Shown here: piece by piece, positions 3,303 through 33,283 of the stretch
Layout of the letters: each line of letters starts with the position of its first letter
Numbering within the stretch: position 1 is the first letter of the stretch
Assembly (NCBI GenBank): GCA_033764435.1
Contig: JANRIX010000010.1
Span: forward strand, 163,220-227,219
Direction: 5' to 3'
DNA: 64,000 nt
Origin: Burkholderiales bacterium
GTDB lineage: Bacteria; Pseudomonadota; Gammaproteobacteria; Burkholderiales; Usitatibacteraceae
Program-made: the position numbers and the translations under genes
Notes under the pieces: model-generated
Told to the model about the DNA's origin: nothing
What the model saw: only the letters and a program-made list of their open reading frames with translations
Database searches by the model: none

Positions 3303-3340
3303 GCCCATCGGCCTGCAAAAAAAGTCCGCAAAATCCCCAA

Positions 3341-3371
3341 AACCCTACCAAGCATGGTGGGGTTTTTTTTC
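3341..3371 (+). terminator. rho-independent terminator downstream of the AraC gene
   Basis: 7-bp stem ccctacc/ggtgggg (one G-U pair), loop aagcat, followed by T8 (3363-3370). Confidence 0.55.
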
Positions 3372-3394
3372 TTGAACCGGTCCAGAATCGGGTC

Positions 3395-3832
3395 ATGATC
3401 GATGACACCCCCGTCCGCAGCACCCTGGTCCGCGAGTTGGTGGTCGGCGAAGCGTCCGGCCCCATTCCGGTGCTGGCACTGCTGCACTGGAACCCGTCAC
3501 GCATCCTCGCGCGGCCGGGCCAGCGCTTCCTCATCGAGGCCGACAACAGGGTCTGGACGGACGCCCACCTGCCTGCCACGGCAGCCGGTACAGGCGACCT
3601 CGGCTTGCAGCGGTTGTCCACTGCCATGTGCCGCCACCGGCAGGCCGCGCTCATGGAGTTGATCGGCACGCTCGGGCGCGAACACGATCATCAGTTCCGC
3701 ATCGGCAAGGGCACGGTGTGGGAGAACCACACTGGCATCGAGGCCGAGATCTTTTTCTACGCCAACGACGTCTACTTCATGTACTACAACAACGCCGGCA
3801 GCGTGATGGTGACGGTGACGCGGCTGGCATAG
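3395..3832 (+). CDS. hypothetical protein
   Basis: 145-aa ORF with no recognisable motifs; the terminator upstream implies an independent transcription unit. Confidence 0.4.
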   Translation: MIDDTPVRSTLVRELVVGEASGPIPVLALLHWNPSRILARPGQRFLIEADNRVWTDAHLPATAAGTGDLGLQRLSTAMCRHRQAALMELIGTLGREHDHQFRIGKGTVWENHTGIEAEIFFYANDVYFMYYNNAGSVMVTVTRLA

Positions 3833-3907
3833 TTGCGTGCGGCATGGATTTGCGTGCGGACGCGTCGCAACGACGCGCCGGGAACGATTTCCGCCACCGC
3901 AAATATT

Positions 3908-3919
3908 GCGAATATTCGC
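3908..3919. repeat. GCGAATATTCGC palindrome copy (perfect)
   Basis: 12/12. Intergenic, ~45 nt upstream of the DUF1428 start, preceded by a half copy (gcaaatattgcgaatattcgca). Confidence 0.95.
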
Positions 3920-3963
3920 AAGCCATCGGATACTCCGATCCACATAAGAAAGCGGAGAACAAC

Positions 3964-4326
3964 ATGGCCCTGTACGTCGATGGATTCCTGCTGCCCATCC
4001 CGAAGAAAAATGTGGACGCCTACAAGAAGCTCGCCCGCAAAGCCGGCAAGATCTGGCGCGAGCACGGCGCCCTGCATTACGTCGAGTGTATTGAAGACGA
4101 CGTGAAGCCCGGCAAGTGGACGTCGTTTCCCCAGGCCGTGAAGCTGAAGAAAGGCGAGACGGTGTGGTTCTCCTGGATCGTCTACAAGTCGCGCAAGCAC
4201 CGCGACCAGGTCAACGCCAAGGTCATGGCCGACCCGCGCATCAAGGCCATGGGCGGGCCGGAAGACATGCCCTTCGACGGCAAGCGAATGATGTGGGGCG
4301 GATTCAAGTCGATGGTCGAGCTGTAG
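3964..4326 (+). CDS. DUF1428 family protein
   Basis: MALYVDGFLLPIPKKNVDAYKKLARKAGKIWREHGALHYVECIEDDVKPGKW matches the DUF1428 N-terminus. RBS aagcggag upstream; in frame with ORF 3628..4326. Confidence 0.8.
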   Translation: MALYVDGFLLPIPKKNVDAYKKLARKAGKIWREHGALHYVECIEDDVKPGKWTSFPQAVKLKKGETVWFSWIVYKSRKHRDQVNAKVMADPRIKAMGGPEDMPFDGKRMMWGGFKSMVEL

Positions 4327-4364
4327 CCCAGCGAGACCACCCTGCCCGTCGCTGCGCATGCCCC

Positions 4365-4610
4365 ATGAACGATCCACTCCATAGCTTGCAGCGCTTCCTG
4401 GGCGAGCTGTTGTCCGGATTGCTGGCGGCGATGGGTCAGGTCGTCCTGACGCTGCTCGCGGTTGCGGGCACCATCACACTCATGATTGCAGCGACGATGG
4501 CCTTTGGCACAACGGGCCTGATGCTTGTCGCAGCCCCGTTGTGCATTGGCCTCTTCATCTGGGCGGTGATGCGCGCAGGCGGGGAAGGATCTGGCAGCGG
4601 CGACGAATAG
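4365..4610 (+). CDS. small membrane protein (2 predicted TM helices)
   Basis: 82-aa hydrophobic ORF MNDPLHSLQRFLGELLSGLLAAMGQVVLTLLAVAGTITLMIAATMAFGTTGLMLVAAPLCIGLFIWAVM, in frame within ORF 4116..4610. Confidence 0.4.
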   Translation: MNDPLHSLQRFLGELLSGLLAAMGQVVLTLLAVAGTITLMIAATMAFGTTGLMLVAAPLCIGLFIWAVMRAGGEGSGSGDE

Positions 4611-4614
4611 CGCC

Positions 4615-5913
4615 TTAGAGCTGCGGCCGTGCCGGCGCAGCGGGCGGCGCGGGCGGTACAGGCGGCAAAGGAAGCGCAGGTGGTGATGGCAGCGGTGGTG
4701 GGGATGGTGGCGTTGGCGGCAGCGCATCGGCCACCACCACGGCGACCGCAGCAGGCAGTCTGGGCGGCGGCGGTGCTGCAGGCGGTGCAGGCGCGGTGGT
4801 TGCACCCGGGAGCGGTGGCGGTGCCGGCGGCGCCGGTACGACGAGCGCGACATTGCCATCGGCCCATTGCGAATATTCGCCTTCCACACTGCGCGCGGCG
4901 AACTGGTTCGAACCTTCGCGCGGACGCTCCATGAGCACCATGCGCTTGCCCGGATAGTCGAACGTGACCACGTAGCGTTTCAACAGCGCGATGCCGATCG
5001 CGCCCTGGCGATTGCCCAGGCCGACCGCCTCTTTCTCTTCATACGACACCGCCACCTCGCGCGCCTGCAACACCGCCTCGCCGTGGCCCCGACTTTGACC
5101 AAACGCCACATTCACCGGCGCGCCCTTCAGCGTCTTCGACTTGCCGGACACATAGCACGCGGTCTGCGGCTCGCCCTGTTCCGGCATGCGGATTTCCGGC
5201 TTGCTGCCGGCGATGAGCGCCAGCGCGCTGTTCTTGCCAGTGTCCACATGAACATGCACTGGCACTGGCTTGTTGGCGAGATTCACGCTGAGATCTGTAT
5301 AGATGTGCCCGCTGCGAATCGAAAGCGGCAACACGGCGACGCCCGCACGCTCAGCCGGCGCGGTCCAGCGCTTCGGATCGAAGAGGCGCACCCGCCCGCG
5401 CTGATGGTCGATCTCCACCACGAACCGCTTGAAGAGATCTGCGCCGATCACGCCCTGGAAGTTGATCTTCTCGAACCGCTCCGGGCAGGGCATGGACTGT
5501 CCCGGGATGACGACAGCCGTGAGATCGGAAAACTTCACCCGGCCAAAATCGAATTCGAATCCCGGCGTGATGACGCCGGTCGGCGTTGCCGGGTTGTCGG
5601 CCGGCCCCAGCTTCCGCGCCTTCGAGGTATCGAGCTTCAGCGCCTTTGTCGCTGGCCCATCAATGATGACCGACACCGGCGCGCCCGTATCGAGGATGAA
5701 GTCGTAACGCCCGCCGCGGTTGACCGCGCCGGTCAGGATCACCAGCCCGCCCGGGCCCTCGCGAAACGCGAGCTCGATCGGCTCGTCGGCGCGGGCCGGA
5801 TCGAACTGCGCCTGCACCGTCGGCTCGGTGAAGCCCATCAGTGCGTATTGCAGGTTGCAGCCGGCCAGCACCTGCAGGAGCAGGGCGGCGAGCAGCAGCC
5901 TCGGAGCCCGCAT
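4615..5913 (-). CDS. retropepsin-like aspartic protease lipoprotein with Pro/Ala-rich C-terminal tail
   Basis: Lipobox LLQVLAGC. Two DTG motifs (FILDTGAPVSVI, VHVDTGKNSALAL). C-terminal PAPPAPPPLPG...PPVPPAPPAAPARP tail. Start at M80 (5913) or M76 (5925) of ORF 4615..6150. Confidence 0.7.
   Translation of the reverse strand: MRAPRLLLAALLLQVLAGCNLQYALMGFTEPTVQAQFDPARADEPIELAFREGPGGLVILTGAVNRGGRYDFILDTGAPVSVIIDGPATKALKLDTSKARKLGPADNPATPTGVITPGFEFDFGRVKFSDLTAVVIPGQSMPCPERFEKINFQGVIGADLFKRFVVEIDHQRGRVRLFDPKRWTAPAERAGVAVLPLSIRSGHIYTDLSVNLANKPVPVHVHVDTGKNSALALIAGSKPEIRMPEQGEPQTACYVSGKSKTLKGAPVNVAFGQSRGHGEAVLQAREVAVSYEEKEAVGLGNRQGAIGIALLKRYVVTFDYPGKRMVLMERPREGSNQFAARSVEGEYSQWADGNVALVVPAPPAPPPLPGATTAPAPPAAPPPPRLPAAVAVVVADALPPTPPSPPPLPSPPALPLPPVPPAPPAAPARPQL
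4869..4880. repeat. GCGAATATTCGC palindrome copy (perfect)
   Basis: 12/12; in the retropepsin-like gene (minus), reads EYS (frame checked). Confidence 0.95.
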
Positions 5914-5966: not shown

Positions 5967-6311
5967 GACGAGACATGGCGCACCTCAGCGGGTCGGCAAA
6001 GCGACGAGTGTCTGCCGCAGAGGCCAGCCGCTCAAGCGCGATTCGATGAAGCGGTGAAATCGCGGCGTGAAATGCAGGGCGGTCCTGCCGCGCCTGCCGA
6101 GCGATACAGAGCGTCACAAATCGGCACATTCGATACCAAATGCCGCTCAATTTTGCGCTGCGCTACGCGCGCGCGGCCATCGCCGCGCATGGCGACAAAC
6201 CGTTCGTCGCCTGATACAAAATTTCCGGCTTTCCCTATCAAGCATGGTGGGGACAAGCGCCTTCAGCCCTGCTAACGTCGAGAAGTTCCCGCCCAGGATG
6301 AAGGAGGCCCC

Positions 6312-8459
6312 ATGCCGTCACGCCAAGTCAACCTCACCCATGCCGGACTTCGCACGCTGGACGCCCGGCCAGACCGCCTCGATCTGCGCGACCGCCCGTA
6401 TCTGCCCCCGGTGCGATCGCTGCCGCATCGCTACCCCAGCGACGCCAATCTCCGGAAACTCCTTCCCGATTACCTGAAGAAAAAGATGGTGCTCGATCAG
6501 GGCCAGGAAGGCGCATGCACCGGCTTTGGTCTCGCGGCCGCCATCAACTTCATGCTCTGGTACAGGCATGTCGAAACCAAAGGTCGCTACCCCTACAAGC
6601 GGGTCAGCCCGTACATGCTCTACGACCTCGCGCGCTTCTACGACGAATGGCCGGGCGAGGACTACGACGGCTCCAGCTGCCGCGGCGCCATGAAGGGCTG
6701 GCACAAACATGGCGTCTGCGAATATTCGCACTGGACCAGCTCGGTGAAGCCCGGCGGAACCTCGGGAAAATCATCGAAGCCGTACAAACCCAATACCGGT
6801 TGGGCATTCGATGCGGCCAACTGTCCGGTCGGCATCTACTACCGGGTCAATCGCGAGTCTGTCACCGACATCCAGGCCGCCATCAACGAAATGGGCGCGG
6901 TCTACGTCGCGGCCACCGTCCACGCCGGCTGGGACAGCGTCAAGCTGGCGAATGCCCGCCTGAAAAGCCACGACGACATCCCGGTCATTCCGTGGACGAA
7001 GGACTATCAAGCCACTGGCGGTCACGCGTTTGCGCTGATGGGCTTCAACGAATCCGGCTTCGTCGTGCAGAACTCCTGGGGCGACCGATGGGGCAACCAG
7101 GGCTTCGCCGTGATCACCTACGCCGACTGGGTTGCCAACGGCTGCGACGCGTGGGTGTGCTCGCTGGGCGTGCCACAGGTCAAGCCCGGGTCGGCTGCCA
7201 ACGCGGCAACGGTGTCGCGCGTGCGCCAATTGAATTCGTCGGCTGTCACGCCGGCTGCGGCGCTCGCCTCGACAGCGCCTTCTGCCGCCGAGCCGTGGGA
7301 CGTGGACACCGCCTACGCGCACACGCTGGTCGCCGGCAACAACGGCGTCGTCCGCCACAACACCCCTGATATCGGCAGCGCAGCCGCCCAGGTCGAGAAG
7401 ATCCTCGTCGATGCGCCGCTGGCCTGGGCCAGGGAAACAAAGCTTGCCAAGTCCGGCAAGCCACTCAAGCTGATGCTCTACGCGCATGGCGGCCTCAATT
7501 CGGAAGACAGCTCGGTGAAGCGCATTCGCAAGCTGGGACCGTACTTCCTCGCCAACGGCGTGTACCCCGTGTTCTACACCTGGCGCACCGGGTTCATGGA
7601 AGTTGTGAAAAGCGCTCTCGGCGACGCATTTGCCCCGAGTGAAGCGCCCGCGTCGGGCAAGCTGGCCGACGCCAAGGACGCGCTGATTGAGGCGATCTGC
7701 CACGGCACGCGCGCCATCTGGAACGAAATGACGGAGAACGCCGCGCGCGGCGCCGACGCCGGACACGCGATCGACCTCGCGGCCGAGGCGATCGTCATGC
7801 TCGCCAGCAAAGTCGATCTTGAAGTGCATCTCGTTGGCCACTCCGCCGGATCGTTCGTCCACGGCCACCTCATGGACGCGCTCGCCAAGCGCAAGCTGCC
7901 GGTGCACTCGCTGACCCTCTACGCCCCCGCCTGCTCACTCGACTTTGCCAATGAACACTTCGTCCCGGCGGTGCAGAAGAAGCGGCTGGCCAAGGACGCG
8001 TTCTGGCTGCACGTCCTTTCCGACAAGCGCGAGCGTGCGGATTTCGTGGGGCCCGGCACGACCCGGGTCTACGGCAAATCCCTGCTCTATCTCGTCAGCC
8101 GAGGGTTCGAGAGCACGCGCAAGACGCCACTCGCGGGGCTTGAACACTGCCTCGATACGCGCGCCGACAACCCCGACGATGATCTGTGGACAAAGGCGCT
8201 CTACGAGAAGGATGTGCTGGCGTGGCGGAAGTTCGTTGCCACGCTGCCCGCGCAGGCGGATGGCAGGGCGGCGGTGGAGGTCACGGATGCCGATGTCGTC
8301 ACTGAGAAACTGAACGCCGACGGGACCATGTCGACCACCAAGGCCTCGCACGGCTCGTTCGACAACGATGTCGATGTTGTCACGCGCACGATCAATCGCG
8401 TGCTGGGGGTGGCCCCCGGCGCGAAGTTGGCGGTGCCGGTCGTGGATTTGAAGTATTGA
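6312..8459 (+). CDS. fusion protein: N-terminal papain-like (C1) cysteine peptidase domain + C-terminal alpha/beta-hydrolase domain
   Basis: RBS aaggagg before ATG 6312. C1 motifs: QGQEGACTGFGLAAAINF (Gln/Cys), GGHAFALMGF (His), VVQNSWGDRWGNQGF (Asn-Ser-Trp). Hydrolase motifs: LMLYAHGGLN (oxyanion HGG), LVGHSAGSFV (GxSxG nucleophile), C-terminal SHGSFDND. Confidence 0.8.
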   Translation: MPSRQVNLTHAGLRTLDARPDRLDLRDRPYLPPVRSLPHRYPSDANLRKLLPDYLKKKMVLDQGQEGACTGFGLAAAINFMLWYRHVETKGRYPYKRVSPYMLYDLARFYDEWPGEDYDGSSCRGAMKGWHKHGVCEYSHWTSSVKPGGTSGKSSKPYKPNTGWAFDAANCPVGIYYRVNRESVTDIQAAINEMGAVYVAATVHAGWDSVKLANARLKSHDDIPVIPWTKDYQATGGHAFALMGFNESGFVVQNSWGDRWGNQGFAVITYADWVANGCDAWVCSLGVPQVKPGSAANAATVSRVRQLNSSAVTPAAALASTAPSAAEPWDVDTAYAHTLVAGNNGVVRHNTPDIGSAAAQVEKILVDAPLAWARETKLAKSGKPLKLMLYAHGGLNSEDSSVKRIRKLGPYFLANGVYPVFYTWRTGFMEVVKSALGDAFAPSEAPASGKLADAKDALIEAICHGTRAIWNEMTENAARGADAGHAIDLAAEAIVMLASKVDLEVHLVGHSAGSFVHGHLMDALAKRKLPVHSLTLYAPACSLDFANEHFVPAVQKKRLAKDAFWLHVLSDKRERADFVGPGTTRVYGKSLLYLVSRGFESTRKTPLAGLEHCLDTRADNPDDDLWTKALYEKDVLAWRKFVATLPAQADGRAAVEVTDADVVTEKLNADGTMSTTKASHGSFDNDVDVVTRTINRVLGVAPGAKLAVPVVDLKY
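6718..6729. repeat. GCGAATATTCGC palindrome copy (perfect)
   Basis: 12/12, extended TGCGAATATTCGCA; in the C1 peptidase domain, reads CEYSH (frame checked). Confidence 0.95.
8139..8459. repeat. direct repeat copy A (3' end of the peptidase/hydrolase gene), paralogous to 14676-14993
   Basis: Encodes LEHCLDTRADNPDDDLW...AWRKFVATLPAQADGRAAVEVTDADVV...SHGSFDNDVDVVTRTINRVLGVAPGAKLAVPVVDLKY. About 70% aa identity to the downstream remnant. Confidence 0.75.
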
Positions 8460-8469
8460 TCGAGCGCAC

Positions 8470-9921
8470 ATGAACCACCCGGACACAACGCCAAAGGAGC
8501 GATTGGAAAAGGAAAAGCTCAGGCTTGAGATTGCCCGCCTTTATGGCCTGTCCAGTATCGAAACTGAGAAAGCCAAGACTGATCTGAAAATTGCATCGGA
8601 CTCATTCAGGCGTCAGATCACGATCGCCGTGGTCGGACTGCTGATTCCGGCGCTTTCACTCGTTTGGTCTGTGCACTCTTACACCGAGTCCCAACGGGCA
8701 CGATCCAGCGAAGCCGACTCAAGGGCAAAGGCCGAGCGTGAGGCCTCCCTTGAGAAGTCCAAGAGTGAACTGGCCATTCGCGAGCGCCAAATGTTGATCC
8801 AAGCGCTGGGCCTACTTTCGAAACCAGATGCGGCAGAAAGAATTGCGGGTGCGGTGGCGCTCTCCGCGGCCGTCACGCCAGGCAGCCCGGAAGCGAAAAT
8901 TGCCACAGGCGCACTCCTCGCCCGACTTGCGCACGAAACAGACATTCCCGTGATCGAGGCAGTCTCCAGATCAGTGGCAAATTTCGGGGTTTCAGCCGCA
9001 CCAGAAATTGTCTCGCTGAACCAGCGCTCTGCCTACTCAGTTGCAACAAGCGTCGCAGACTGGTCCGCAGTATCCGATCGGAGATTGACTGAACGGGAAC
9101 GAAAGGCAATCCACAAGTCGGAGGAGAGCGAAAGGGCTTGGCTTTGGAGTCACGTTGGTGCCGTACTTGAGCGATCAGGACTCCCTATGCAGCCGGATCT
9201 CGAAGGCATCAATAAGTCCAGCTCGATCGCGGAGCTCAACATCCTCGGATCGAAGAAGTTCTGGGCTGTCTACACAGACAGAAGAGAGTCACTGCTGAAG
9301 CGACAAGGCGCAGGTTCGGCGCCAGAACCTGAAGGAGAGCTGGCGCCGAATCACCGTCGACACATTGCCTTGATCGAATCTCAAATCAGCCGGCATGCTC
9401 GAACTCTGGCCGGCACAAGCCTCGCATTGGTTCAAATACTTCGCACATCAAGCCCGGAGGCCATTCAAAAGCTGGACCTGAGTGGCATTTCTCTCACCCG
9501 CGGCAACCTCGATGGCACGAACCTCATGCGTGCAAGACTGAAGAGTGCACTCGTCTACGCAAGCCTCAGAAACGCAAATCTCAGCGGGGCCGTGTTGAGC
9601 AACGCACACATAGAGGGGCCAATGGGGAGAGCCGACTTCAGAACGGCAAACTTGGAGGGCGCGCAGATCAGAGGCATTGGCCTGCTGCAGGTGCTCTTTT
9701 TCGGCCGAAGCTGCAAGGCGAGCGCCGACAGACGGTCACGGTTTCCGATCATGGATGAGAATGGACGCAAATTGCTACTGGATCACATTACCGGGGGCAT
9801 AAGTGCCGATGGATTCAAACTCCTTGGCAATCAAGAAAAACAAACTGTCACTGCGGATAGCTTCAAGCAGAATGTCGCTCGCTTGCTGGTTGATTGCCTG
9901 GCGCCTGAAGTGATCCCATGA
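8470..9921 (+). CDS. pentapeptide-repeat protein with N-terminal coiled-coil/TM anchor
   Basis: One TM helix (ITIAVVGLLIPALSLVWSV). C-terminal pentapeptide repeats (LSGISLTRGNLDGTNLMRARLKSALVYASLRNANLSGAVLSNAHIEG...ADFRTANLEGAQIRG). Starts 11 nt after the upstream stop. Confidence 0.7.
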   Translation: MNHPDTTPKERLEKEKLRLEIARLYGLSSIETEKAKTDLKIASDSFRRQITIAVVGLLIPALSLVWSVHSYTESQRARSSEADSRAKAEREASLEKSKSELAIRERQMLIQALGLLSKPDAAERIAGAVALSAAVTPGSPEAKIATGALLARLAHETDIPVIEAVSRSVANFGVSAAPEIVSLNQRSAYSVATSVADWSAVSDRRLTERERKAIHKSEESERAWLWSHVGAVLERSGLPMQPDLEGINKSSSIAELNILGSKKFWAVYTDRRESLLKRQGAGSAPEPEGELAPNHRRHIALIESQISRHARTLAGTSLALVQILRTSSPEAIQKLDLSGISLTRGNLDGTNLMRARLKSALVYASLRNANLSGAVLSNAHIEGPMGRADFRTANLEGAQIRGIGLLQVLFFGRSCKASADRRSRFPIMDENGRKLLLDHITGGISADGFKLLGNQEKQTVTADSFKQNVARLLVDCLAPEVIP

Positions 9922-9971
9922 AATTCGGGATCAGTCGTTGCCCGAATTGAATTTTCCGGAGCCACATAATC

Positions 9972-10907
9972 ATGCCACCCACCCGCATCGCCTTCACCTC
10001 CTGCGCCCGCATCGAGGACTTCCCTTCCCAGCCGCAGTGGAAGGAGATCCAGGATGCCGAACCGCACTACCTCCTCCTGCTGGGCGATCAGATCTACATG
10101 GACTACGGATTCAGCAGCGAGCCGAACGGTTCGCCTGCCGACTATCCGCTGGACAAGTTTCGGGACACGATGGCGGCAAAGTACGCGCGCCAGTGGTCGG
10201 AGACACATTTCAAGGACCTGCTTGAATACATGCGCGCCGAGGAGTCTCCAGACAAACCGCGAATATTCGGCACCTGGGACGACCATGACTTCGGCTGGAA
10301 CAATGCCTTCGGCCTGCAGCCGAAAATGACGCCCGACAAATACCAGGCCACGCTCGACCTCTTCCATCAATGGATGAATTGCTCGACCAACCGGCCGCAT
10401 GTGTACTGTCACGCGGACATCGGCGACTTGGCCCGGCTCATCATCCTCGATCAGCGCAGTCACGCTGAGCCCGCAAGCCCGACCAAGCCGACGGCGTCGT
10501 TGCTGGGCGCGGACCAATGGGCGTTTCTGCGGGACAAGCTCAACCACGACAAGCAATACACCCTACTCTGCGGCGGGCTCAGCCTCACCCGCGGCAAGGA
10601 CAACTGGGAGGAGTACCAAGACGAGTACCAGCAACTGCGCGATCTCATCGAGGATCGCGAAGGCGTGATCTATCTGGGCGGCGACATCCACAGCAACAAA
10701 TTCATGAAGCCCGGCGATGACCGGCCGTGCTACGAGATCATCTCATCCGGGCTGGCCGTCAACCTGCTCGCGCTGACGTCGCTGGGCATTGACGATCGCC
10801 ATAACTGGAGCTATCTCGACCTCTCCGAAGAGGGTGTAAAGGTGGTGCAATCCACGTCGGGAAAGCTCAAGCGGCACGCAATCCGATTTGACAATTGGTG
10901 GGGCTGA
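9972..10907 (+). CDS. PhoD-like / calcineurin-like metallophosphatase
   Basis: Metallophosphoesterase signature blocks ARIAFTSC, LLLGDQIYMDYG, WDDHDFGWNN, LGGDIHSNKF. Confidence 0.75.
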   Translation: MPPTRIAFTSCARIEDFPSQPQWKEIQDAEPHYLLLLGDQIYMDYGFSSEPNGSPADYPLDKFRDTMAAKYARQWSETHFKDLLEYMRAEESPDKPRIFGTWDDHDFGWNNAFGLQPKMTPDKYQATLDLFHQWMNCSTNRPHVYCHADIGDLARLIILDQRSHAEPASPTKPTASLLGADQWAFLRDKLNHDKQYTLLCGGLSLTRGKDNWEEYQDEYQQLRDLIEDREGVIYLGGDIHSNKFMKPGDDRPCYEIISSGLAVNLLALTSLGIDDRHNWSYLDLSEEGVKVVQSTSGKLKRHAIRFDNWWG

Positions 10908-10969
10908 CCTCGGCTACACATCAGGGGACTTTGCAGGGGATTGCTTGCAATCCGGAAAGGGGGCGAACG

Positions 10970-13306
10970 ATGAGTACCAAGCGGAAATCACGAGTGGCAT
11001 CCTCCAGAGCGCCAAAGGAAGAGATTGAGCTGTCGATCTGCGCCTTTGGTGTCGACCCTTTGACGATCACCCTGCCCGATCCGTCTTCGGACATGCAGTC
11101 GGTGAACATCAAGCAGCTCATCCTCAACTCGACTGCGGAACTCTGGACATACACGCTTCAGAACCGGATGCGCTGGCAAAGCGAAGATGGCATCTCGTCG
11201 AAGCTGACTCGGAAGGCCCGGGGCGCATTCGAAGAACTGGGAATCGCCCCGAGCGAGTGGTCCAAGCTGGCCTCCAGCAAGATCGCCCAGATTTCAATCC
11301 CCGTTGATCGGCTTGGCCAGAACGCGCTTCGACTCATGCCGTGGGAGTTCTTCATCGCCTCCGCGCTGGCCGCTGATCCACGAGTGCCCATCGTCCGCAA
11401 AGCTGTATTCACTCAGTCCGCAAAGCCTGCAACTCCAGAGCGCACCAACAAGACCATTCTCTTTATCCAGAGCGCGCCAGGCCGGTTGGGCACAGCGTAC
11501 GACTTTGATTCAGAGAAAAAGCTGGTCAGGTCAACGTTCAGCGACGCCACTGTCAAGATTCTGGAAAACCCTGACATCGCCGAGATCCGCAGGTGCGTTG
11601 TAGATCTGGATCCCGAGGTGATTCACTTCGCTGGCTTCGATTATCGGCAGGCGATGGCAGAGCTGTCGGCTGACGCCGCGGGCGAGTACCCCTCCGCGAT
11701 CCCGCGAGTGGGTGCGTGGCCAGAGGACTCGTTTGACGGCGTCGTTCTTGGTGACCCCGCTCAAGGTGTCGTCGCGCACCATTCCGCCGAGTTTGCCGAC
11801 GCCCTGTGTGCCGGCAAGCGGGGGCCGGTCATGGTTTGCCTCGCGTGCTGGCATGGCGCGACCGCGCTCGCGCCCGAGCTAGTGCTGGCCGGCGCGCGGA
11901 GTTGCTTCTGCTTTCAGGACATTCTGGATGATGAGTTCGCCGAGACGATCCTGTCGTCCTTCTACCGCTTCTGGCGCGACGAGAACTGGAAGCTCGGCCC
12001 CGCCTTCACCAACACACTTCGCCACTTGTGGAAGCAGCCCGGCGGCGTGCGCGGCACCGGCATCGTTCTTCTCACCACCGACGAGCTTGTCGCCCGGAAC
12101 ACACCGGAAACCGAGCCGCAGAAAACAGAGGCAGCTCCCCCGCTCAGGGGGAAGAAGTTGGCAGACGCGAACCTCCCGGCGTTGATCGGCTTCGACATTC
12201 GCCCGCACAACGAGCTCAACTACGCGATGCTCCATAACGCGCAGCCACTGTTCAAGAGCTTCCGCATCATTCGCCTGTCCGACGCAGAGTTCGAGGACTT
12301 GGAAATCACGGTCGACCTTTGCACAGGACCGGAAGGCAAGGCGTTCCGACGCACGACAGCATTGCGCGTTCAAACGCTTGATCTCACGCGTGAGATCGTC
12401 ATCCCCCTCAATGCGACCCTCTCCCGCCAGATCCGCGAAGCAGTGTCCAGCAGCCTGTTCGTCGAGATCGCCTGTGGCGGCAGAATCCTTCACCGAGAGA
12501 CCCATCGAGTCCGCCTGCTGCCAGCGGATCAATGGAAAGACAGCGCCAAGGACAGCCGCTGGCTGCCCAGCTTTGTGCTCCCGCGCGACCCGGCCGTCAC
12601 CCACGTCATCCGGGACGCGCACAAGTACGTCAAAGTCCTGCGCGATGATCCCGACGCCGGATTCGAGGGCTATCAGGTCTACTCCAGCATCGACGACGAG
12701 AGTGAGCACAGCGAGGACGAACAGATCGCCCTGGATCTGCAAGTTCAAGCCATCTGGGCCGCGATCGCACACGAATGCCGGTTGGTCTACATCAATCCGC
12801 CGCCCACCTACAGCGATGGCTTCGACTCACAGCGGCTGCGCACACCCAGCACGACAGTCAATGGTCAGATGGGCACCTGCATTGACCTCGCGCTCCTGTT
12901 TGCCGCCTGCCTGGAGTTCGTGGACATCTACCCCGTCATCTTCCTGCTGGATGGTCACGCACTTCCCGGCTATTGGCGCAGCGAGACCGCACACAGCCGA
13001 TTCGTCTGCATCGACAACCCCGGCGACGCGGCTGTCCGCCAGAGTCGAAGCAGTGCCCTCGCCGGTGGGTCGAAACTTGGGGACGGCTGGGTCTTTGACG
13101 AATCGATTTATGAGGAAATCAGAAAGGAAATCGAAATCGGCAATCTGGTGCCCGTCGAATCGACCCGACTGACCCAGGTCTCGTCATTCGCGCAGGCCGT
13201 CGAGCTCGGCACGCGCGCCCTGGCTTCCGCATCGGGCTTTCAATGCATGCTCGACATCCATATCGCGCGGCAATTGAACGTAACGCCGCTGCCCATACAG
13301 GAGTAA
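10970..13306 (+). CDS. CHAT (caspase-like) domain + C-terminal transglutaminase-like cysteine-protease domain protein
   Basis: RBS aaaggggg before ATG 10970 (M26 of ORF 10895). CHAT-like block VIHFAGFDY...VMVCLACWHGATALAPELVLAGARSCFCFQDILDDEFAETILSSFYRFW. C-terminal transglutaminase-core-like block GTCIDLALLFAACLEFVDIYPVIFLLDGHALPGYW (Cys..His..Asp). Confidence 0.65.
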   Translation: MSTKRKSRVASSRAPKEEIELSICAFGVDPLTITLPDPSSDMQSVNIKQLILNSTAELWTYTLQNRMRWQSEDGISSKLTRKARGAFEELGIAPSEWSKLASSKIAQISIPVDRLGQNALRLMPWEFFIASALAADPRVPIVRKAVFTQSAKPATPERTNKTILFIQSAPGRLGTAYDFDSEKKLVRSTFSDATVKILENPDIAEIRRCVVDLDPEVIHFAGFDYRQAMAELSADAAGEYPSAIPRVGAWPEDSFDGVVLGDPAQGVVAHHSAEFADALCAGKRGPVMVCLACWHGATALAPELVLAGARSCFCFQDILDDEFAETILSSFYRFWRDENWKLGPAFTNTLRHLWKQPGGVRGTGIVLLTTDELVARNTPETEPQKTEAAPPLRGKKLADANLPALIGFDIRPHNELNYAMLHNAQPLFKSFRIIRLSDAEFEDLEITVDLCTGPEGKAFRRTTALRVQTLDLTREIVIPLNATLSRQIREAVSSSLFVEIACGGRILHRETHRVRLLPADQWKDSAKDSRWLPSFVLPRDPAVTHVIRDAHKYVKVLRDDPDAGFEGYQVYSSIDDESEHSEDEQIALDLQVQAIWAAIAHECRLVYINPPPTYSDGFDSQRLRTPSTTVNGQMGTCIDLALLFAACLEFVDIYPVIFLLDGHALPGYWRSETAHSRFVCIDNPGDAAVRQSRSSALAGGSKLGDGWVFDESIYEEIRKEIEIGNLVPVESTRLTQVSSFAQAVELGTRALASASGFQCMLDIHIARQLNVTPLPIQE

Positions 13307-13310
13307 GGCC

Positions 13311-14660
13311 ATGAGCACGTTTAGCGCAGAAAACCGCAAGGATGTGGGCGAATGCATCAAGTCTTCCATCTCCTCCATGGAGAGCCTTTTTTCGGCGGAG
13401 CACATGGAAGCCTCGGAGCGGATGACCGGCCGCCGACGCAGCGGTGCGACGCTGCGACAGCAGCCGCGCCTGCAGCTGGTGGATGTCGACGGCGTGTTGC
13501 GCTGGCGATACCGGGATGTCGAGGCCGGACCGAGCGGGAGACGTTCGCTCCGCGCCATCGCTGCCACGGCCATGGGAGATGTCGTGGTCGACCTCCCCTT
13601 GAAGCCGTTGAACCGCAATCAAGTGCTGGCTGCGATGCAAAGCCTCGATGATTCCCTCACGCCCTCGCGCGGGCTGCGAGTGATTCACGAGGGTCAACTG
13701 GTCAAGGCACCGGAGATCGAGCACCCGGCAAAGGTTCTGCTCTTCATACACGGCACCTTCAGCAAGGGCGAGGCCCTCTACGACGAACTCAAGTCCACCG
13801 AGGACGGCCACAAGTTCCTGCATTGGGCGCATGAGCACTATGATCACGTGCTCTTCTTCGATCATCCCACGCTCGCCGTCAGCCCCATACTGAATGCCGT
13901 CGAGCTCAGCACACTTCTGGCGGGCCGCTGCAGCAGCATCGACATCATCGCCCACAGCCGCGGCGGCATCGTCGCCGCGTGGGCCGCCAAAGGCATGAAA
14001 CTGCCCCTCGGCATCGTGTGTACGCTGGGTAGTCCGCTCGATGGCACCAGCCTGGCCAGCCCCTACCGCCTGCGCGACACGCTGGACTACTTCGCCAACG
14101 TTGCCGCCGCTTGCAAGCTCGCCACCGGCGCACTCGGCGCTGTACCGTTTGCAGGTCCGCTGTTCGCAGCGACGGCCGGACTCATGTCTGTATTGCAAAC
14201 CGTCCTCTACGCCTCTGCCAAGACACCGCTCATCGACGCGGGCATTGCGATCGTGCCCGGCCTTGCAGCGCAATCACGTGTCGACAACAATCCGGAGCGG
14301 ATAGCGTTGCAGGATGACCGTACGGCGGCCCACGTATCCGGGACTTTCATCGGTGTCACCGCAAACTTCAGCCCGCAGCATATCGACGAGCCGATTTGGC
14401 AATTCTGGAAGCGGTGGCAGAGGCTGCCGTGGTCAGTGGCCAACAAGGTCACGGATGCCATCTTCGAGTCGGCCAACGATCTTGTCGTCGACTGCGACTC
14501 TGCAAAGAAATTCTGCGGCGCACCCGCAGCCGCCACGCAGATCTTCGACTTTGGTGACACCCATCTCGTGCATCACTGCAACTACCTGACGCAAAGCAGA
14601 ACGCTCGACTTCGTGAAGACGCATTTGACCGACCGGCATGCCGCAGCCGGGAGAACGTAA
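13311..14660 (+). CDS. alpha/beta-hydrolase (lipase/esterase-like) protein
   Basis: LLFIHGTFSKGEALY (oxyanion region) and IIAHSRGGIVAAW (GxSxG-type nucleophile elbow). Stop TAA 14658-14660 is in frame with the downstream remnant. Confidence 0.7.
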   Translation: MSTFSAENRKDVGECIKSSISSMESLFSAEHMEASERMTGRRRSGATLRQQPRLQLVDVDGVLRWRYRDVEAGPSGRRSLRAIAATAMGDVVVDLPLKPLNRNQVLAAMQSLDDSLTPSRGLRVIHEGQLVKAPEIEHPAKVLLFIHGTFSKGEALYDELKSTEDGHKFLHWAHEHYDHVLFFDHPTLAVSPILNAVELSTLLAGRCSSIDIIAHSRGGIVAAWAAKGMKLPLGIVCTLGSPLDGTSLASPYRLRDTLDYFANVAAACKLATGALGAVPFAGPLFAATAGLMSVLQTVLYASAKTPLIDAGIAIVPGLAAQSRVDNNPERIALQDDRTAAHVSGTFIGVTANFSPQHIDEPIWQFWKRWQRLPWSVANKVTDAIFESANDLVVDCDSAKKFCGAPAAATQIFDFGDTHLVHHCNYLTQSRTLDFVKTHLTDRHAAAGRT

Positions 14661-14675
14661 CGCAAGGTCGGCCGC

Positions 14676-14993
14676 CTCGCCCACTGCCTCGACCCGAAAG
14701 CGGACAACCACGACGACGACCTCTGGACACCACGCGAATATTCGCAAGTGGTCGCGTGGCGCGATTTCGTCCGCGCGCTGCCCGCGCAGGCCGACGGCCG
14801 CGACGCCGCGGAAGTCGTCACCATCGACGTCGTCCCCGCCAAGCTCGGCGCGGACGGCAGCGTGGTCACCATCGAGTCCACCCACGGCTCGTTCGACAAC
14901 GACCTCGAAACCATTTCGCGGACGATCAACCGGGTGTTAGGCAAGGTGCCGTCGGCGCCGCTGGAGGTGGGGGTGACGGATTTGAAGTATTGA
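14676..14993. repeat. direct repeat copy B (paralog of 8139-8459)
   Basis: See copy A. Contains a perfect GCGAATATTCGC copy that the upstream copy lacks. Confidence 0.75.
14734..14745. repeat. GCGAATATTCGC palindrome copy (perfect)
   Basis: 12/12; within the gene remnant, reads EYS. Confidence 0.95.
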
Positions 14994-15012
14994 GTAAGGG
15001 GTGGCAGAGAGT

Positions 15013-15024
15013 GCGAATATTCGC
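15013..15024. repeat. GCGAATATTCGC palindrome copy (perfect)
   Basis: 12/12, extended TGCGAATATTCGCA; intergenic. Confidence 0.95.
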
Positions 15025-15078
15025 AAGCGCCAGCGCGTCGGCGGCGACGGTTACGTAACGGAATGTCATGATTCTGCA

Positions 15079-15090
15079 GCGAATATTCGC
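15079..15090. repeat. GCGAATATTCGC palindrome copy (perfect)
   Basis: 12/12; intergenic. Confidence 0.95.
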
Positions 15091-15159
15091 AATTGGCAGC
15101 ATCAAACCGCCTCACAGCGCAATTCGCTGCCGGCGTCACAAAAAGCCACCAGAAAACAC

Positions 15160-15192
15160 CAGAACCCTACAAAGGTTGATGGGGTTTCTTCT
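15160..15192 (+). terminator. terminator-like hairpin + T-tract (member of the ccctaY..tgggg hairpin family)
   Basis: aaccctacaaaggttgatggggtttcttctc; related to the hairpins at 3343 and 6233. Confidence 0.35.
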
Positions 15193-15590
15193 CGCCAGCT
15201 TAGACATACTGTCTCGTAACGTTGCCTTCATCGATGCCCTGCGCAAGAATGACCCGTAAATGATTGACATCGTCCTGGACGACTTTGCCAATGCGCTGGC
15301 CGAACTGCTGACGACGAACGAGATGTCGATAACGCCCGATACACAATCAATCGCCGACGACGGCGAGCCGACTTGACCAGCGACGCAATGTGACTCGATC
15401 AATCCAAAGCCGAGCAAATGCGCATCACTCTCAGAACGAGGATGAAGAACCAGCTCGTCCAGGCTGTCGTGAAGGGGCGAGGGATGAGATGACAGAGGAA
15501 GAGGAGCGGCATGCGGGGCATGAAGACGTTAGGTCAAGAGCGGCGATTGTGATCGCCAAACCATAGTCCTACAAGGCATTTGACGGTATC

Positions 15591-16595
15591 TTGGCATTGC
15601 ATAGCCCAATGCCGCGCTCATTGAACCGACCGAAAGAAATCAAGGTCGTTGCAGGAAAGGGGAAATACTTGTTTAACTCGCAGATTGGTCCACTAGACGG
15701 CCCTTCCTGGGAGGCGCTGTGCCAAGAGGCCCTCAAGAGACGGCACCATTCCGAGGGATACCAAGAAATGAAAGCGTCCCCCGGCGACTATGGGATTGAT
15801 GGCTTCACACTGGATTCTGGACTTGCCTTTCAGTGCTATTGCCCGGAAAAACACTACTCTCGGCCAGAGCTGTATGAAAAGCAGAGAGACAAAATCACAG
15901 AAGACGTAGGGAAGCTACGGACGCATCAGAAGCCAATTCTCGACAGAGTTGGGAGCAATAAGTTCTCGAAATGGATATTCCTTACCCCTGAGTATGACAA
16001 GAATGATCTTCTCGCCCACGCAAGAAGCAAAGAAGTAGAAGTTCGAAGCTGGAACCTACCATTCCTAACTTCGGATTTTCAGATAGTAATAAGGGATGCC
16101 TCTGACTACAGAACTGAAATCAATGAGATCCGCGTCCTCAGTCTGGAGCCCCTCTACTTTGAGGATGAAGTCCCGACCCTAAAAACGATTCAGGGCGAGA
16201 AGGAAGAGCACGAAAAAAACATCGAGAGGAAGTCCAAGGCCCGACTTGCAGGGGCCGAACAAAGCCCTCGCTATTCAACTCGACTGGAGCAACTGCGTCA
16301 GAAGACTCTGGAGAGTTTTTTTGAGTACGAAGATTTCTTTCGAAAAATTAGTGACGACGCGCCGTTGATTTACGTCAGGCTAGTTCGACTAATAAATGAG
16401 TATGAAGAGATGGTGGTCGAGTCCTCCACCACATGGTCGGGAACAGCACAGGACCTAACTGAAAAAATTCGTGATGACCTAGCTTCTAGGATTTCTCAAG
16501 AGCTTGCGCCACAGATATCAGCGGCCACTGCAATGAAGATAGCCAGAATAATGACTGCGCGATGGATAGCTGTTTGCGAGTTGGACTATGGATAG
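15591..16595 (+). CDS. Lamassu/ABC-3C-like system, putative effector subunit (LmuA-like)
   Basis: 334-aa ORF in a ~45% GC block, first of three translationally coupled genes (overlaps 16588/17046). Weak PD-(D/E)xK-like pattern (GDYGIDGF...QCYCPEK). Assignment rests on position and architecture. Confidence 0.4.
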   Translation: MALHSPMPRSLNRPKEIKVVAGKGKYLFNSQIGPLDGPSWEALCQEALKRRHHSEGYQEMKASPGDYGIDGFTLDSGLAFQCYCPEKHYSRPELYEKQRDKITEDVGKLRTHQKPILDRVGSNKFSKWIFLTPEYDKNDLLAHARSKEVEVRSWNLPFLTSDFQIVIRDASDYRTEINEIRVLSLEPLYFEDEVPTLKTIQGEKEEHEKNIERKSKARLAGAEQSPRYSTRLEQLRQKTLESFFEYEDFFRKISDDAPLIYVRLVRLINEYEEMVVESSTTWSGTAQDLTEKIRDDLASRISQELAPQISAATAMKIARIMTARWIAVCELDYG

Positions 16596-17049
16596 CCCAA
16601 TCGTCGAACTTGTATTCCGGCGCCAGCCATCGGCGGTGATTCCAGAACACAGACCACTTTACAAGATCTCTCAGCTTGCGCTGATCCTAAATGTCTCATC
16701 CCGCGCTGGACGATCTAAAGTTTCGCGATTGCACTTATTGAACTGGGCGCTAAAGAAGAGATCGCGACAACTGTTGCTAGAACGTGCTGCTGAAAGCGGC
16801 ACACTTAGGATTCAAGCTTGGGGCTTCGATCCCATTCTTGCATTTGCAATTCGCTTTGCACTCGCTGACGGCATTGTTGCAGATACGTCGACCGGTTATG
16901 AGCTCACGGAGAAAGGAAGATCCTTTGCCATGGCCATTCTGAAAGATCCCACTTTGTTGGCGAGCGACAAAGTTTTTCTAGAAAGAATCGGAAAAGGCAT
17001 TACGGAAACAATGGTGGATGCTGTGGCAAATGACTGGGACATTAGATGA
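16588..17049 (+). CDS. Lamassu/ABC-3C-like system, small middle component (LmuC-like)
   Basis: 153-aa ORF overlapping both neighbours by 8 and 4 nt; no catalytic motifs. Confidence 0.4.
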   Translation: MDSPIVELVFRRQPSAVIPEHRPLYKISQLALILNVSSRAGRSKVSRLHLLNWALKKRSRQLLLERAAESGTLRIQAWGFDPILAFAIRFALADGIVADTSTGYELTEKGRSFAMAILKDPTLLASDKVFLERIGKGITETMVDAVANDWDIR

Positions 17050-19091
17050 AGATAAATGCGATTCGGGTCAAGATTTCGGCAACCGAAGGTGACTTTGGAT
17101 TTAATTTCCAGTTTGGTAAGAATCTGACAATCATTAGAGCCAACAACACAAGCGGTAAGAGCACTCTAATCAACTGCTTGCTATACGGCCTGGGCATGGA
17201 AGAGCTGATTGGGGGCAAGGGGGAAAGGACGCTCTCGTCCGCGGTCAAAGACGCGTTCGATCACGGCCAAAAGAAGATTCAGGTTCTTAGCTCTGAAGTA
17301 TGGCTTGAGATTGAAAACTCTCAAGGTGCAATAGTCACACTTCGGAGAGCCATCAAAGATAAATCCCGCGACTCAAAGCTAATCGAGATTTATCCCGTCG
17401 CATTTCTGACAGAGGGCGAAACGCCAATCACCTCAACTCCAACATATTTGCACGATCCCGGAAGCGCCAAGAACCAAGGGGGCTTCTATCATTACTTGGA
17501 ACAGTTCCTCCAACTCTCACTGCCGAGAGTACCCACAGTTTCTGGCTCCGAAACGAAGCTCTACATTCAATGCGTTTACACAGCTTGTGCTGTAGAACAA
17601 AAAAGAGGTTGGACTGACTACCTAGCAAACATGCCATTTTTTGGTATCAGAGATGCGAGAACCAGGGTTGTTGAATACATTTTGGGACTCGATGTATTTG
17701 AAACAAATTCTGAGAGAAATAGACTCAACCAAGAGTCAATTGAGATCGATAAGGACTGGAGATCATTGGTTGAGCAAATGAATTCGAAGGGGCTTCGAAT
17801 CGGCGCAAAGTTAGTCAACCTTCCAGCTACGCCGACAGTGTCGTTCGATCCCAATCTCGTGGCGTATGTCTTCCCACAGGGCCAAGCGACCATCACATTG
17901 TCAGAGCATCTCTCGGCGCTTCGATCGCGACACGCAAGTCTCGAGGCTCAAAGAGATCGATTCCGCTCGAACGCCAGCCAAGAATCCATACAAGCAGTCG
18001 ACTCCACAACAGAGGAGTTGAGCCAGCTGAATCTTTTTCACGGCCGCTCTCTTGCTTATGTCGAGCAACTAAAGATTTCACTCTCTCAGTATGGCGAGCA
18101 ACTGGAGGAGACAAACGAAGATCTGTCTAGGAATAAAACTGCCGGGAAGCTACAAGAGCTAGGTGCAAAATTCGAATTCAGCACCAGCTCCAACATCTGC
18201 CCAACTTGCGATCAACCGATCAATGAATCTCTGATACCAAAGGCAATCTCAGGACCGCAAATGGATCTTGCGTCGAACATTCGATATCTCGACAGTCAGA
18301 GGAAGATGCTCGAACGGCAGATTCTTGGAATACAACAGAGCTTAGCTGATGCCGAATCGAACACGAAGGCGTTTGAAGCTCAGATTCGGACCAAGACGCA
18401 GTTTCTTGCCAACCTAAGGGGAGACATTTCAACTGGAGCTGCAGAGTCTCGGGCTGTTGCCCGAGAGCAAGCCCAAATTGAACTTGAAATAGAAGCATTG
18501 GAGAGATTGGTTTCGGATCTCGCCCCGTCCTTAAATCGGATAAACGCACTAGCCCTGAAACTAAGAGAAAACCAAGCATTTCGCAACACTCTTCCTAAGT
18601 CGATCTACACGGAATCTGACGAAAGCAAGATTCGAATTTTTGAGAAGCAGTTTCGAGCAAATGCCGGCTCCTTTGGATACGAAAGCGCTCCAATCAATGA
18701 GATTGGCATTTCCTTTGAGAAACTTACTCCGAGTTGGGCAGACATCGAATTGCGCGAAGTGATTGACCGAGACATTCAAGCGGAATCAAGTGCCAGCGAT
18801 TTTATAAGATTGATCTGGAGCTACTTACTAGCACTTCACCAGACTTCGGCGCTGAGCGCGGTTGACGGTCGACATCTCGGCCAGCTAATTCTCGACGAGC
18901 CTGGACAGCACTCAATGGCTGCCCCGAGCCAGCACGCCCTACTTAAGCAATTAGCCGCTGAGAAAGAGCTTCAAAGCATTGTGTCAGCCTCGTTTGATGA
19001 GACCGAGGAGGTATTCCTGAAGGCAACCGCAGGCATTGCGTTTGAATTAATTCGCTGGGAGGGAAAGCTGATTCAACCACTCGATGCGTAA
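17046..19091 (+). CDS. SMC/Rad50-like ABC ATPase with coiled-coil and CxxC zinc-hook (LmuB-like)
   Basis: Walker A IIRANNTSGKST at the N-terminus. Long coiled-coil with ICPTCDQPINESLIP (CxxC hook) at its centre. C-terminal Walker B QLILDEPGQH. Confidence 0.7.
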   Translation: MKINAIRVKISATEGDFGFNFQFGKNLTIIRANNTSGKSTLINCLLYGLGMEELIGGKGERTLSSAVKDAFDHGQKKIQVLSSEVWLEIENSQGAIVTLRRAIKDKSRDSKLIEIYPVAFLTEGETPITSTPTYLHDPGSAKNQGGFYHYLEQFLQLSLPRVPTVSGSETKLYIQCVYTACAVEQKRGWTDYLANMPFFGIRDARTRVVEYILGLDVFETNSERNRLNQESIEIDKDWRSLVEQMNSKGLRIGAKLVNLPATPTVSFDPNLVAYVFPQGQATITLSEHLSALRSRHASLEAQRDRFRSNASQESIQAVDSTTEELSQLNLFHGRSLAYVEQLKISLSQYGEQLEETNEDLSRNKTAGKLQELGAKFEFSTSSNICPTCDQPINESLIPKAISGPQMDLASNIRYLDSQRKMLERQILGIQQSLADAESNTKAFEAQIRTKTQFLANLRGDISTGAAESRAVAREQAQIELEIEALERLVSDLAPSLNRINALALKLRENQAFRNTLPKSIYTESDESKIRIFEKQFRANAGSFGYESAPINEIGISFEKLTPSWADIELREVIDRDIQAESSASDFIRLIWSYLLALHQTSALSAVDGRHLGQLILDEPGQHSMAAPSQHALLKQLAAEKELQSIVSASFDETEEVFLKATAGIAFELIRWEGKLIQPLDA

Positions 19092-19097
19092 TTGCCT

Positions 19098-19826: not shown

Positions 19827-19884
19827 AGATGCGGTGAATTCATCATTGGTCTGAGAGTCGAAAGGCAGGCCAACCTTCCATGGG

Positions 19885-20724: not shown

Positions 20725-20788
20725 GCTTGTCAGTTGGGCGTTTATTCAATTAGGGCGGGCTTAATCGTTTCGGCTGGTTTCGTGCACT

Positions 20789-20982
20789 CCGAATATTCGC
20801 AGTGCACGTTTGAGACGAACTTGGGCCCCGGCCCGTCATTCCCGCGAAGGCGGGAACGGGGCGACGGGGATGCGATTGCCATTGCGACTAAGTGGAGTCC
20901 GGGTGACTTCGATTGGACGCTGCAGGCGGTCCCGCAGGGATTCAGCAGTCGCCCCAAGCGACTGGTTAACAATATTCGCACT
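20789..20982. repeat. composite repeat element bounded by degenerate GCGAATATTCGC-like ends and containing a REP-like hairpin (20839-20856 ttcccgcgaaggcgggaa)
   Basis: Left end ccgaatattcgcagtgca (11/12); right end aacaatattcgcactgca (9/12); internal hairpin shared with the elements at 22283 and 33284. Confidence 0.5.
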
Positions 20983-33266: not shown

Positions 33267-33283
33267 AACACTCCGAAGAGGAC

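Follow-up and report, generated by a model that had tools for sequence, protein, structure and literature searches.

How did the last 106 codons of a peptidase/hydrolase gene come to stand a second time, without the rest of that gene, behind four further genes on the same strand? The question is raised by a locus of the window, that is, of the whole 64,000-nucleotide stretch analysed here (Burkholderiales bacterium, Usitatibacteraceae; assembly GCA_033764435.1, contig JANRIX010000010.1, positions 163,220 to 227,219). Five tightly packed open reading frames (ORFs) lie there on one strand: the peptidase gene, termed pepA here, and a cargo of four genes for a pentapeptide-repeat protein, a PhoD-like protein, the protein p803, and a DUF7379 protein. 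The original prediction, made from the letters of the sequence, saw in this arrangement an element that had integrated into the 3' end of the gene while supplying a replacement 3' end. In our opinion, held with a probability of about 0.6, a foreign block of pepA plus the four genes replaced the 5' part of the resident gene (termed pepB) in an event resembling homology-facilitated illegitimate recombination (HFIR). The features on which the argument turns are as follows; the pentapeptide gene starts 10 nt past the pepA stop.

6195-6300 (+): conserved leader upstream of pepA, TTTCCCTATCAAGCATGGTGGGGACA...CTGCTAACGTC; would contain the left breakpoint at ~6260
6312-8459 (+): pepA, intact 715-aa gene; papain-like C1 peptidase N-domain and alpha/beta-hydrolase-like C-half (GHSAG)
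8139-8459 (+): repeat copy A, the last 106 codons of pepA plus stop; contains the invariant His680-x-x-Phe-Asp-Asn; free of the palindrome described below
8470-9921 (+): cargo gene 1, pentapeptide-repeat protein, 483 aa (Pfam Pentapeptide, E=2e-9)
9972-10907 (+): cargo gene 2, PhoD-like phosphatase, 311 aa (Pfam PhoD, E=1.6e-15)
10895-13306 (+): cargo gene 3, p803, with no Pfam family; probable true start at the ATG at 10970
13311-14660 (+): cargo gene 4, DUF7379 alpha/beta-hydrolase, 449 aa, complete (Pfam DUF7379, E=6e-28); putative final gene of the foreign block
14661-14675 (+): putative right (illegitimate) junction interval between foreign block and resident gene remnant, from codon-wise comparison with the relative L007
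14676-14993 (+): repeat copy B, probably the orphaned end (last 106 codons and stop) of pepB, the resident peptidase allele
14994-15190 (+): native 3' flank of the peptidase gene, with two palindromes (15013-15024 and 15079-15090)

The repeated gene end and its relatives

The repeat is real and far beyond chance. BLASTP comparison of the 715-aa product of 6312-8456 with the translation of 14664-14990 gives 65 identities in 106 positions (61% aa), one gap, and E=6e-40, which upholds the predicted recurrence of the last ~106 codons at 14676-14993; the nucleotide identity of the two 3' modules is 68%, and the longest exact runs common to both copies measure 11-20 nt. An identical 11-nt sequence, CACTGCCTCGA, stands at the left edge of each copy, and the homology of copy B to the peptidase gene begins a few nucleotides further left. 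The translation of 14400-15020 reads ...HAAAGRT (stop) RKVGRLAHCLDPKADNHDDDLW...VTDLKY (stop) and bears out a second predicted point: copy B follows the TAA of the DUF7379 gene (14658-14660) directly, in the frame of the 449-aa ORF and without an N-terminal part. This frame stays open across 111 codons. pepA and the DUF7379 protein are otherwise unrelated to one another. The public annotation of the source metagenome-assembled genome (MAG), from the Prokaryotic Genome Annotation Pipeline (PGAP), places an 81-aa hypothetical protein, SF172_03370 (P0241), at 14748-14993; this call starts at an internal GTG and covers the tail of the orphan gene fragment. It was the only match in a database search with copy B alone, for which the word index is too sparse.

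The gene whose end is repeated belongs to a family of ~700-aa proteins that join a C1 peptidase to an alpha/beta-hydrolase, as its length, its papain-like domain, and its GxSxG half all agree. More than 6700 homologs were found, and most of the best 120 are ~700 aa long and cover 96-100% of the query, so that the module is a native part of the peptidase gene. The protein P0001, from a MAG labelled Burkholderiales bacterium, is identical to pepA; look-ups by exact sequence with the proteins of the window gave no match. Pfam Peptidase_C1 scores 23.2 on pepA against a cut-off of 20.7. In the predicted structure (mean predicted local distance difference test score, pLDDT, 73) the N-domain matches papains (E=4e-6) and the C-half weakly matches lipases/esterases; a sequence search of the PDB with the hydrolase half gave no match. 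Across 26 aligned members GHSAG (Ser511), Asp571, His680, Phe683, Asp684, and Asn685 are invariant, the last four lying inside the module, and the order Ser-Asp-His is what we take, from general knowledge of the fold, to be the order of the alpha/beta-hydrolase triad. Since the module alone is without the Ser and Asp parts, copy B cannot be a working hydrolase.

Seven relatives with syntenic loci (L001, L005, L007, L092, L094, L095, and L096) serve for comparison. Each carries one intact pep gene, preceded by DUF1428 and, where the contig reaches, by Asp_protease_2; L005 has no Asp_protease_2 gene, and the L007 contig reaches only ~300 nt into the upstream flank. Neither the full cargo block nor a second module occurs in any of the seven, the sole cargo gene there being PhoD in L005. 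A scan of genome contigs added 80 more distant pep-family loci (relatives at 54% identity or less, none of them a close empty site), and among these, too, the cargo genes and a second module are absent. The arrangement is thus conserved in 0 of 80 distant and 0 of 7 close loci.

Compared with the 3' end of the intact 738-aa allele P0008 of L007, copy B differs at 9 of 318 nt (97% identity), 7 of the 9 differences being synonymous, and at 2 of 106 residues (98% aa). Its nucleotide identity is 84% to L092, 83% to L094, and 68% to copy A; this greater closeness to the alleles of other genomes excludes duplication in place. Outside the module the identity to L007 drops away at once, to the left of 14676 as well as past the stop codon. 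Codon by codon, there are 1-3 mismatches per codon up to 14675 and then none over the next 72 nt. An apparent peptidase homology reaching upstream of 14676 to ~14637, across the TAA, was rejected as indistinguishable from chance in GC-rich sequence. Downstream of copy B, the sequence can be aligned with what follows the stop codon of the intact gene in L001 and L007. Of the resident allele, codons 610-715 remain together with the native 3' flank, and codons 1 to ~609 are gone.

The reading of copy B as the displaced native 3' end of the resident allele is thereby supported by sequence comparison, and to this extent the original prediction holds: the 97% identity to the L007 allele, the palindrome-bearing flank, and the signal of the upstream flank all point the same way. 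The further idea, that the repeats arose as a duplication of the gene 3' end during insertion, has to be given up. Copies A and B each end a different allele of the gene, as the allele comparison shows; for an insertion-generated duplication their divergence is too great and their phylogenetic distance too wide.

The same comparison bears on the possibility, raised by the original prediction, of recombination between tandem paralogs. Two full genes, or a gene and an in-place duplicate of its 3' end, would then have flanked the cargo, and the second would have lost its 5' part by deletion. The final structure would be identical, and the frame of copy B has stayed open, most of its differences from L007 being synonymous. 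Against this, two module copies occur in 0 of 87 pep-family loci, copy B is 97% and 83-84% identical to alleles of other genomes versus 68% to copy A, and in L007, L001, L092, and L094 the one gene present adjoins the upstream flank on one side and the palindrome-bearing downstream flank on the other. We consider this origin very improbable.

Another suggestion was that a nonsense mutation had split a longer gene, composed of DUF7379 and the module; the shared frame and the single intervening TAA are what such a mutation would leave. The DUF7379 match itself is strong (98.4 bits against a gathering cut-off of 33; PF24096). Among the best 120 homologs, which measure 324-492 aa (mostly 430-460), all end 0-3 residues past a conserved ...L motif that precedes the last ~8 residues of the window protein, and none carries the module; no fused, uninterrupted ORF is seen among them. 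The 449-aa DUF7379 gene is complete. The module belongs to an unrelated ~700-aa family, and copy B runs on into the native 3' flank of the peptidase gene. A nonsense split is thereby refuted.

Discordance between the peptidase gene and its flank

If the two gene ends come from different alleles, the extent of the foreign part can be sought in the affinities of the surrounding segments. Informative sites were counted three-way, as sites at which the window agrees with L092 only versus sites at which it agrees with L001 only. The counts are 214:105 for the upstream flank (3300-5812), 127:178 for the N-terminal part of pepA, 22:38 for copy A, and 47:17 for copy B. The flank differs from pepA (p=6.5e-12) and copy B from copy A (p=6e-5); copy B does not differ significantly from the flank. 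With L094 as comparator and L095 as contrast the picture is the same, the discordance of pepA with the flank having p values of 1e-10 to 4e-16. Neighbor-joining trees group the window flank with L092 and L094 (92% bootstrap) and the N-terminal part of pepA with L001 (91%); in the module tree, copy B with L007, L092, and L094 is separated from copy A with L005, L001, and L095 (91%). The whole of pepA, rather than its 3' end alone, is thus discordant with the flank and with copy B, and the sharpest breakpoint lies at ~6260, which argues against the predicted element that supplies a replacement 3' end only.

The cumulative curves of informative sites, computed for L092 and for L094, each versus L001, both peak at 6260-6261, ~50 nt before the pepA ATG. 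This point falls at a leader motif (TTTCCCTATCAAGCATGGTGGGGACA followed by CTGCTAACGTC, 6195-6262), of which ~25 nt are invariant in six relatives; the intergenic DNA around it is 54-68% identical. The leader could be a regulatory site or an RNA; an Rfam search with it gave no meaningful match. Flank and leader around ~6260 can be aligned in all relatives, so the left boundary lies in homologous sequence, and the leader coincides with recurrent recombination breakpoints. L094 itself contains a recombinant tract (window-equivalent ~6160-7450): its flank groups with L092 and the window, and the first ~1.2 kb of its peptidase gene with L095/L007. Since L094 and the window break at one and the same 5' boundary, exchanges of whole alleles or of their 5' parts are a recurrent event at the leader in this clade.

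The event may be pictured as follows. The locus would at first have held a single peptidase/hydrolase gene, pepB, of the L007/L092/L094 type, with its palindrome-bearing 3' flank; the locus of a related donor would have held a different allele, pepA, followed on the same strand by the pentapeptide, PhoD-like, p803, and DUF7379 genes. At the left end the exchange would have been resolved by homology at, or just past, the conserved leader (~6260). At the right end the donor would have had no homologous partner after DUF7379, and an illegitimate joint would have formed inside the resident gene at codon ~609 (14661-14676). Some 8.4 kb of donor DNA (~6260-14675) would thereby have replaced ~1.8-1.9 kb of resident DNA, the 5' part of pepB, of which the last 106 codons would have stayed behind as an orphan, by chance in frame after the DUF7379 stop. 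We infer the direction of the transfer, the single arrival of pepA and cargo, and the recombination pathway.

The main rival to this replacement places the left crossover within the gene. The 5' ~1.7-1.8 kb of pepA would be resident, and only the 3' end (from ~7800-8139) and the four genes would have been imported from an L005-like donor in which PhoD follows the peptidase gene, the resident 3' end being pushed downstream. Several observations suit it. Copy A groups with the L005 module (89% bootstrap), a PhoD gene follows the peptidase gene only in L005, and both repeats have the identical 11 nt at their left edge. The informative-site ratios shift toward L005 after ~7760-7940, with permutation p values that vary by contrast from 0.014 to 0.43. 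Among 60 homologs, only L005 (P0006) shares the 15-nt insertion at 8052-8066. However, no breakpoint inside pepA is significant: the maximum chi-square near 7800-8140 is weak or not significant, and none is significant near 8139. The N-terminal part of pepA is without the signal of the flank versus both L001 and L095 (p=1e-10 to 3e-5), so that a further event would be needed. The two insertion sequences are only 9/15 identical and lie in an indel-prone loop; no integrase is present, and the block occurs in no other genome examined. We therefore think an in-gene crossover unlikely, although the mosaic state of several comparators and the failure to find a donor locus keep it a serious contender.

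It should be noted that a number of points weigh against the replacement of the whole 5' part. Two of them are those just named, since the weak drift of the ratios toward L005 after ~7800 and an insertion common only to the L005 allele, the one followed by PhoD, both fit an in-gene crossover. The locus is mosaic in several relatives: the N-terminal parts of L094 and L007 group with L095, and that of L001 groups with the window. With mosaic comparators, "resident" and "foreign" are relative terms, and the 6260 breakpoint may partly reflect events in the comparators. With flanks only ~70% identical to the window, L007 as a whole is not closely related to it; the 97% match of copy B therefore marks a local recombination tract in itself, which may have run in either direction. 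The right joint is confined to 14661-14676, where the microhomology (6/9 nt) is such as chance could produce. No donor-like locus with pepA and all four genes was found, and arrival in a single event is therefore presumptive. Finally, the source sequence is a MAG contig.

The last point leads to the possibility that the contig is a chimera of two strains and that the joint between DUF7379 and copy B exists in no single cell. The origin of the sequence from a MAG speaks for it, as do the contigs of relatives, which often break just after the peptidase gene. An assembler, however, needs a shared k-mer to switch between paths in the graph; no long shared word lies at the joint of 14661-14676, and the longest shared run (20 nt) lies elsewhere. 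A chimera formed through the module would, moreover, yield pepA-5'/pepB-3' and not DUF7379/pepB-3'. An assembly artefact is, in our opinion, very unlikely.

The cargo and the palindrome

Whether the four genes form a single unit is a separate question. Their neighbourhoods elsewhere show the cargo to be a composite. A PhoD-like ortholog (70% aa) stands directly 3' of the peptidase gene in L005, the only related neighbour found. In unrelated bacteria (loci L088-L091), homologs of p803 and DUF7379 (39-46% aa) stand side by side as a conserved gene pair, that of p803 immediately upstream. The pentapeptide gene is absent from 96 of 96 related loci. Besides the PhoD-like ortholog in L005 and the source MAG itself, no relative above 46% identity was found for the cargo proteins. 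p803 resembles part of NCBIfam NF058533, "anti-phage protein ProA", below cut-off (E=8e-55): its residues 442-706 align with the first 248 positions of that model. A weak transglutaminase-like match was also obtained (Pfam DUF553, E=0.07). None of the five genes, cargo included, is covered by a PADLOC model; a scan for promoters and terminators found no more than chance, and a literature search on DUF7379, ProA, and the palindrome returned nothing relevant.

Some integrative elements insert into the 3' end of a tRNA, tmRNA, or protein gene and bring a substitute for that end with them. The layout they leave is the one seen here: an intact gene, the cargo, and a truncated, displaced 3' end as a direct repeat. 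The present locus differs in that no integrase is found, the repeats are 32% diverged (nt), discordance with the flank extends over the whole gene, and none of the other genomes examined shows the cargo as a unit at this site. The stated absence of an integrase from the cargo was confirmed and extended to its surroundings: Pfam scans of real and long shadow ORFs from 3.6 to 26 kb revealed no integrase or transposase domain. A site-specific element in the gene 3' end is accordingly not supported, given the lack of a recombinase in these scans, the discordance of the proximal part of pepA, and the lack of recurrence in 7 + 80 loci; recombination with one homologous and one illegitimate end fits better.

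Could the orphan end be more than debris? Copy B might be a read-through extension of DUF7379, an 81-aa gene as annotated by PGAP, or a silent cassette for gene conversion of the pepA 3' end. It stands in frame after the TAA, its 111 codons are open, and 7 of its 9 differences from L007 are synonymous; the phylogenies of module and N-terminal part differ among the relatives, so modules do get exchanged. Against these stand the 1 in 3 chance of an in-frame position, the nature of the module as a C-terminal hydrolase piece with the conserved His and without the Ser and Asp parts, and the absence of such an extension from the best 120 DUF7379 homologs. In addition, 68% identity with exact runs of at most 20 nt is a poor substrate for conversion, and no orphan modules occur in the 80 other loci. 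We attach very little credence to a function of copy B.

A 12-nt perfect palindrome, GCGAATATTCGC, offers an internal view of the block. The window contains 31 copies against 0.01 expected, at positions that include 836, 3018, 6718, 14734, 15013, 15079, and 22385 ... 60662. In agreement with the original prediction, by which the remnant carries the palindrome and the new copy does not, one copy lies inside copy B (14734-14745) and none in copy A; two more follow just after copy B (15013 and 15079). The palindrome is absent from 6730-14733 and from 15091-22384, the latter including the Lamassu island described below. At the ~0.64/kb found elsewhere, ~5 copies would be expected in 6730-14733 (Poisson P~0.006). 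In the relatives the density is similar, about one per 2 kb, with copies 15-60 nt past the pep stop. The sequence resembles the cyanobacterial hyper-abundant palindromes of the HIP1 type. It often lies in frame at conserved codons (VCEYSxW and xEYSQV in the peptidase gene), and a one-mismatch copy, GCGAATATTCGG, occupies 10257-10270 inside the PhoD-like gene, the sole near-copy within the foreign block. The GC content of the cargo is lower, the pentapeptide gene being the lowest of the block at 55-57%.

Known systems and the variable interval

The feature is a recombination scar of a known kind and not a new type of mobile element. HFIR is described (PMC3240628) for transformable Acinetobacter, Streptococcus pneumoniae, and Pseudomonas stutzeri, and for conjugation in E. 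coli. The present case agrees with it in that one end is anchored by homology and the other joined without it, the event captures foreign genes at the cost of some resident DNA, and what is resident past the illegitimate joint survives. It differs in that it is known from comparative sequence alone, the anchor is diverged (flanks ~75-82% identical, ~25 nt of the leader invariant), the foreign segment, at 8.4 kb, is large, and the microhomology at the joint is weak.

A further parallel is the sequential displacement of type VI secretion system (T6SS) effector-immunity modules in Vibrio cholerae, for which HFIR has been proposed as the mechanism (PMC5361080); the "C-terminal displacement" of Rhs genes, with strings of orphan 3' regions, is cited in the same article, again with HFIR as the proposed mechanism. 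There, too, a module enters via a conserved upstream region and the old 3' end is pushed downstream as an orphan without an integrase. The displaced part here is, however, the conserved catalytic end of an enzyme gene, where those systems displace a variable toxin tip together with its immunity gene; one orphan stands alone, with no array, and the cargo is not an effector-immunity pair. An orphan module of the polymorphic toxin, Rhs, or contact-dependent growth inhibition (CDI) kind was considered and rejected: the module has family-invariant residues, it is not followed by a small immunity-like gene, and a second module occurs in none of the 87 pep-family loci.

To the right of the native 3' flank, two further features complete the locus.

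15591-19091 (+): Lamassu anti-phage system, LmuA/C/B, directly 3' of copy B
19092-19826: Yip1-like gene, which closes the variable interval on the right

The Lamassu system is complete (LmuA, 334 aa, E=8e-38; LmuC, 153 aa, E=1e-20; LmuB, 681 aa, E=4e-105) and has a GC content of 47-51%. In L001 the pep gene is followed by metabolic genes and a PifA-like KAP NTPase, in L005 by PhoD and then Xre/RES and a restriction-modification (R-M) system, in L095 by two small genes and a patatin, and in L096 by a UbiA/HAD gene. The interval between the peptidase gene and the conserved Yip1-like gene is thus a variable spot with different defence-type genes in each relative. In this it resembles defence islands and hot spots, as represented by Lamassu in the window, the PifA-like KAP NTPase in L001, R-M with Xre/RES in L005, and patatin in L095; it is different in that the cargo between pepA and copy B is without a PADLOC match, only p803 resembling part of an anti-phage protein, below cut-off.

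Metagenome contigs of relatives (L002-L004 and L092-L094) repeatedly end ~100-500 nt past the peptidase stop, a sign of strain-level variation just downstream of the gene. The Yip1-like gene is 93% identical (nt) to that of L095 and 88% to that of L001, versus ~70-79% for the upstream flank in the same genomes, so that the right edge of the variable interval, too, is discordant locally. Outside the interval, seven tRNA genes (Leu, Gln, Lys, Arg, His, Glu, and Cys) are clustered at 33057-36703 (-), and a further, doubtful tRNA call lies at 33057-33130.

A more far-reaching idea is that the peptidase gene, with its leader and palindrome, may be a portable homology anchor for repeated, recombinase-free swaps of alleles and of downstream passenger cassettes (defence genes or others) among related Burkholderiales, that the orphan module may be a reservoir for switching, and that p803 and DUF7379, with the pentapeptide and PhoD-like proteins, may form an undescribed conflict system; we regard this as quite unlikely.

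The current understanding of how such scars arise is unchanged by this locus. For the annotation of the genome it means that the five-gene "operon" would be a recent composite and that the annotated 81-aa "hypothetical protein" is a gene fragment. What the locus offers, in our opinion, is a clean natural example of foreign genes captured beside a core gene without an integrase, with a datable scar left behind; in this clade, palindrome-free tracts may serve as a simple internal marker of recently arrived DNA.

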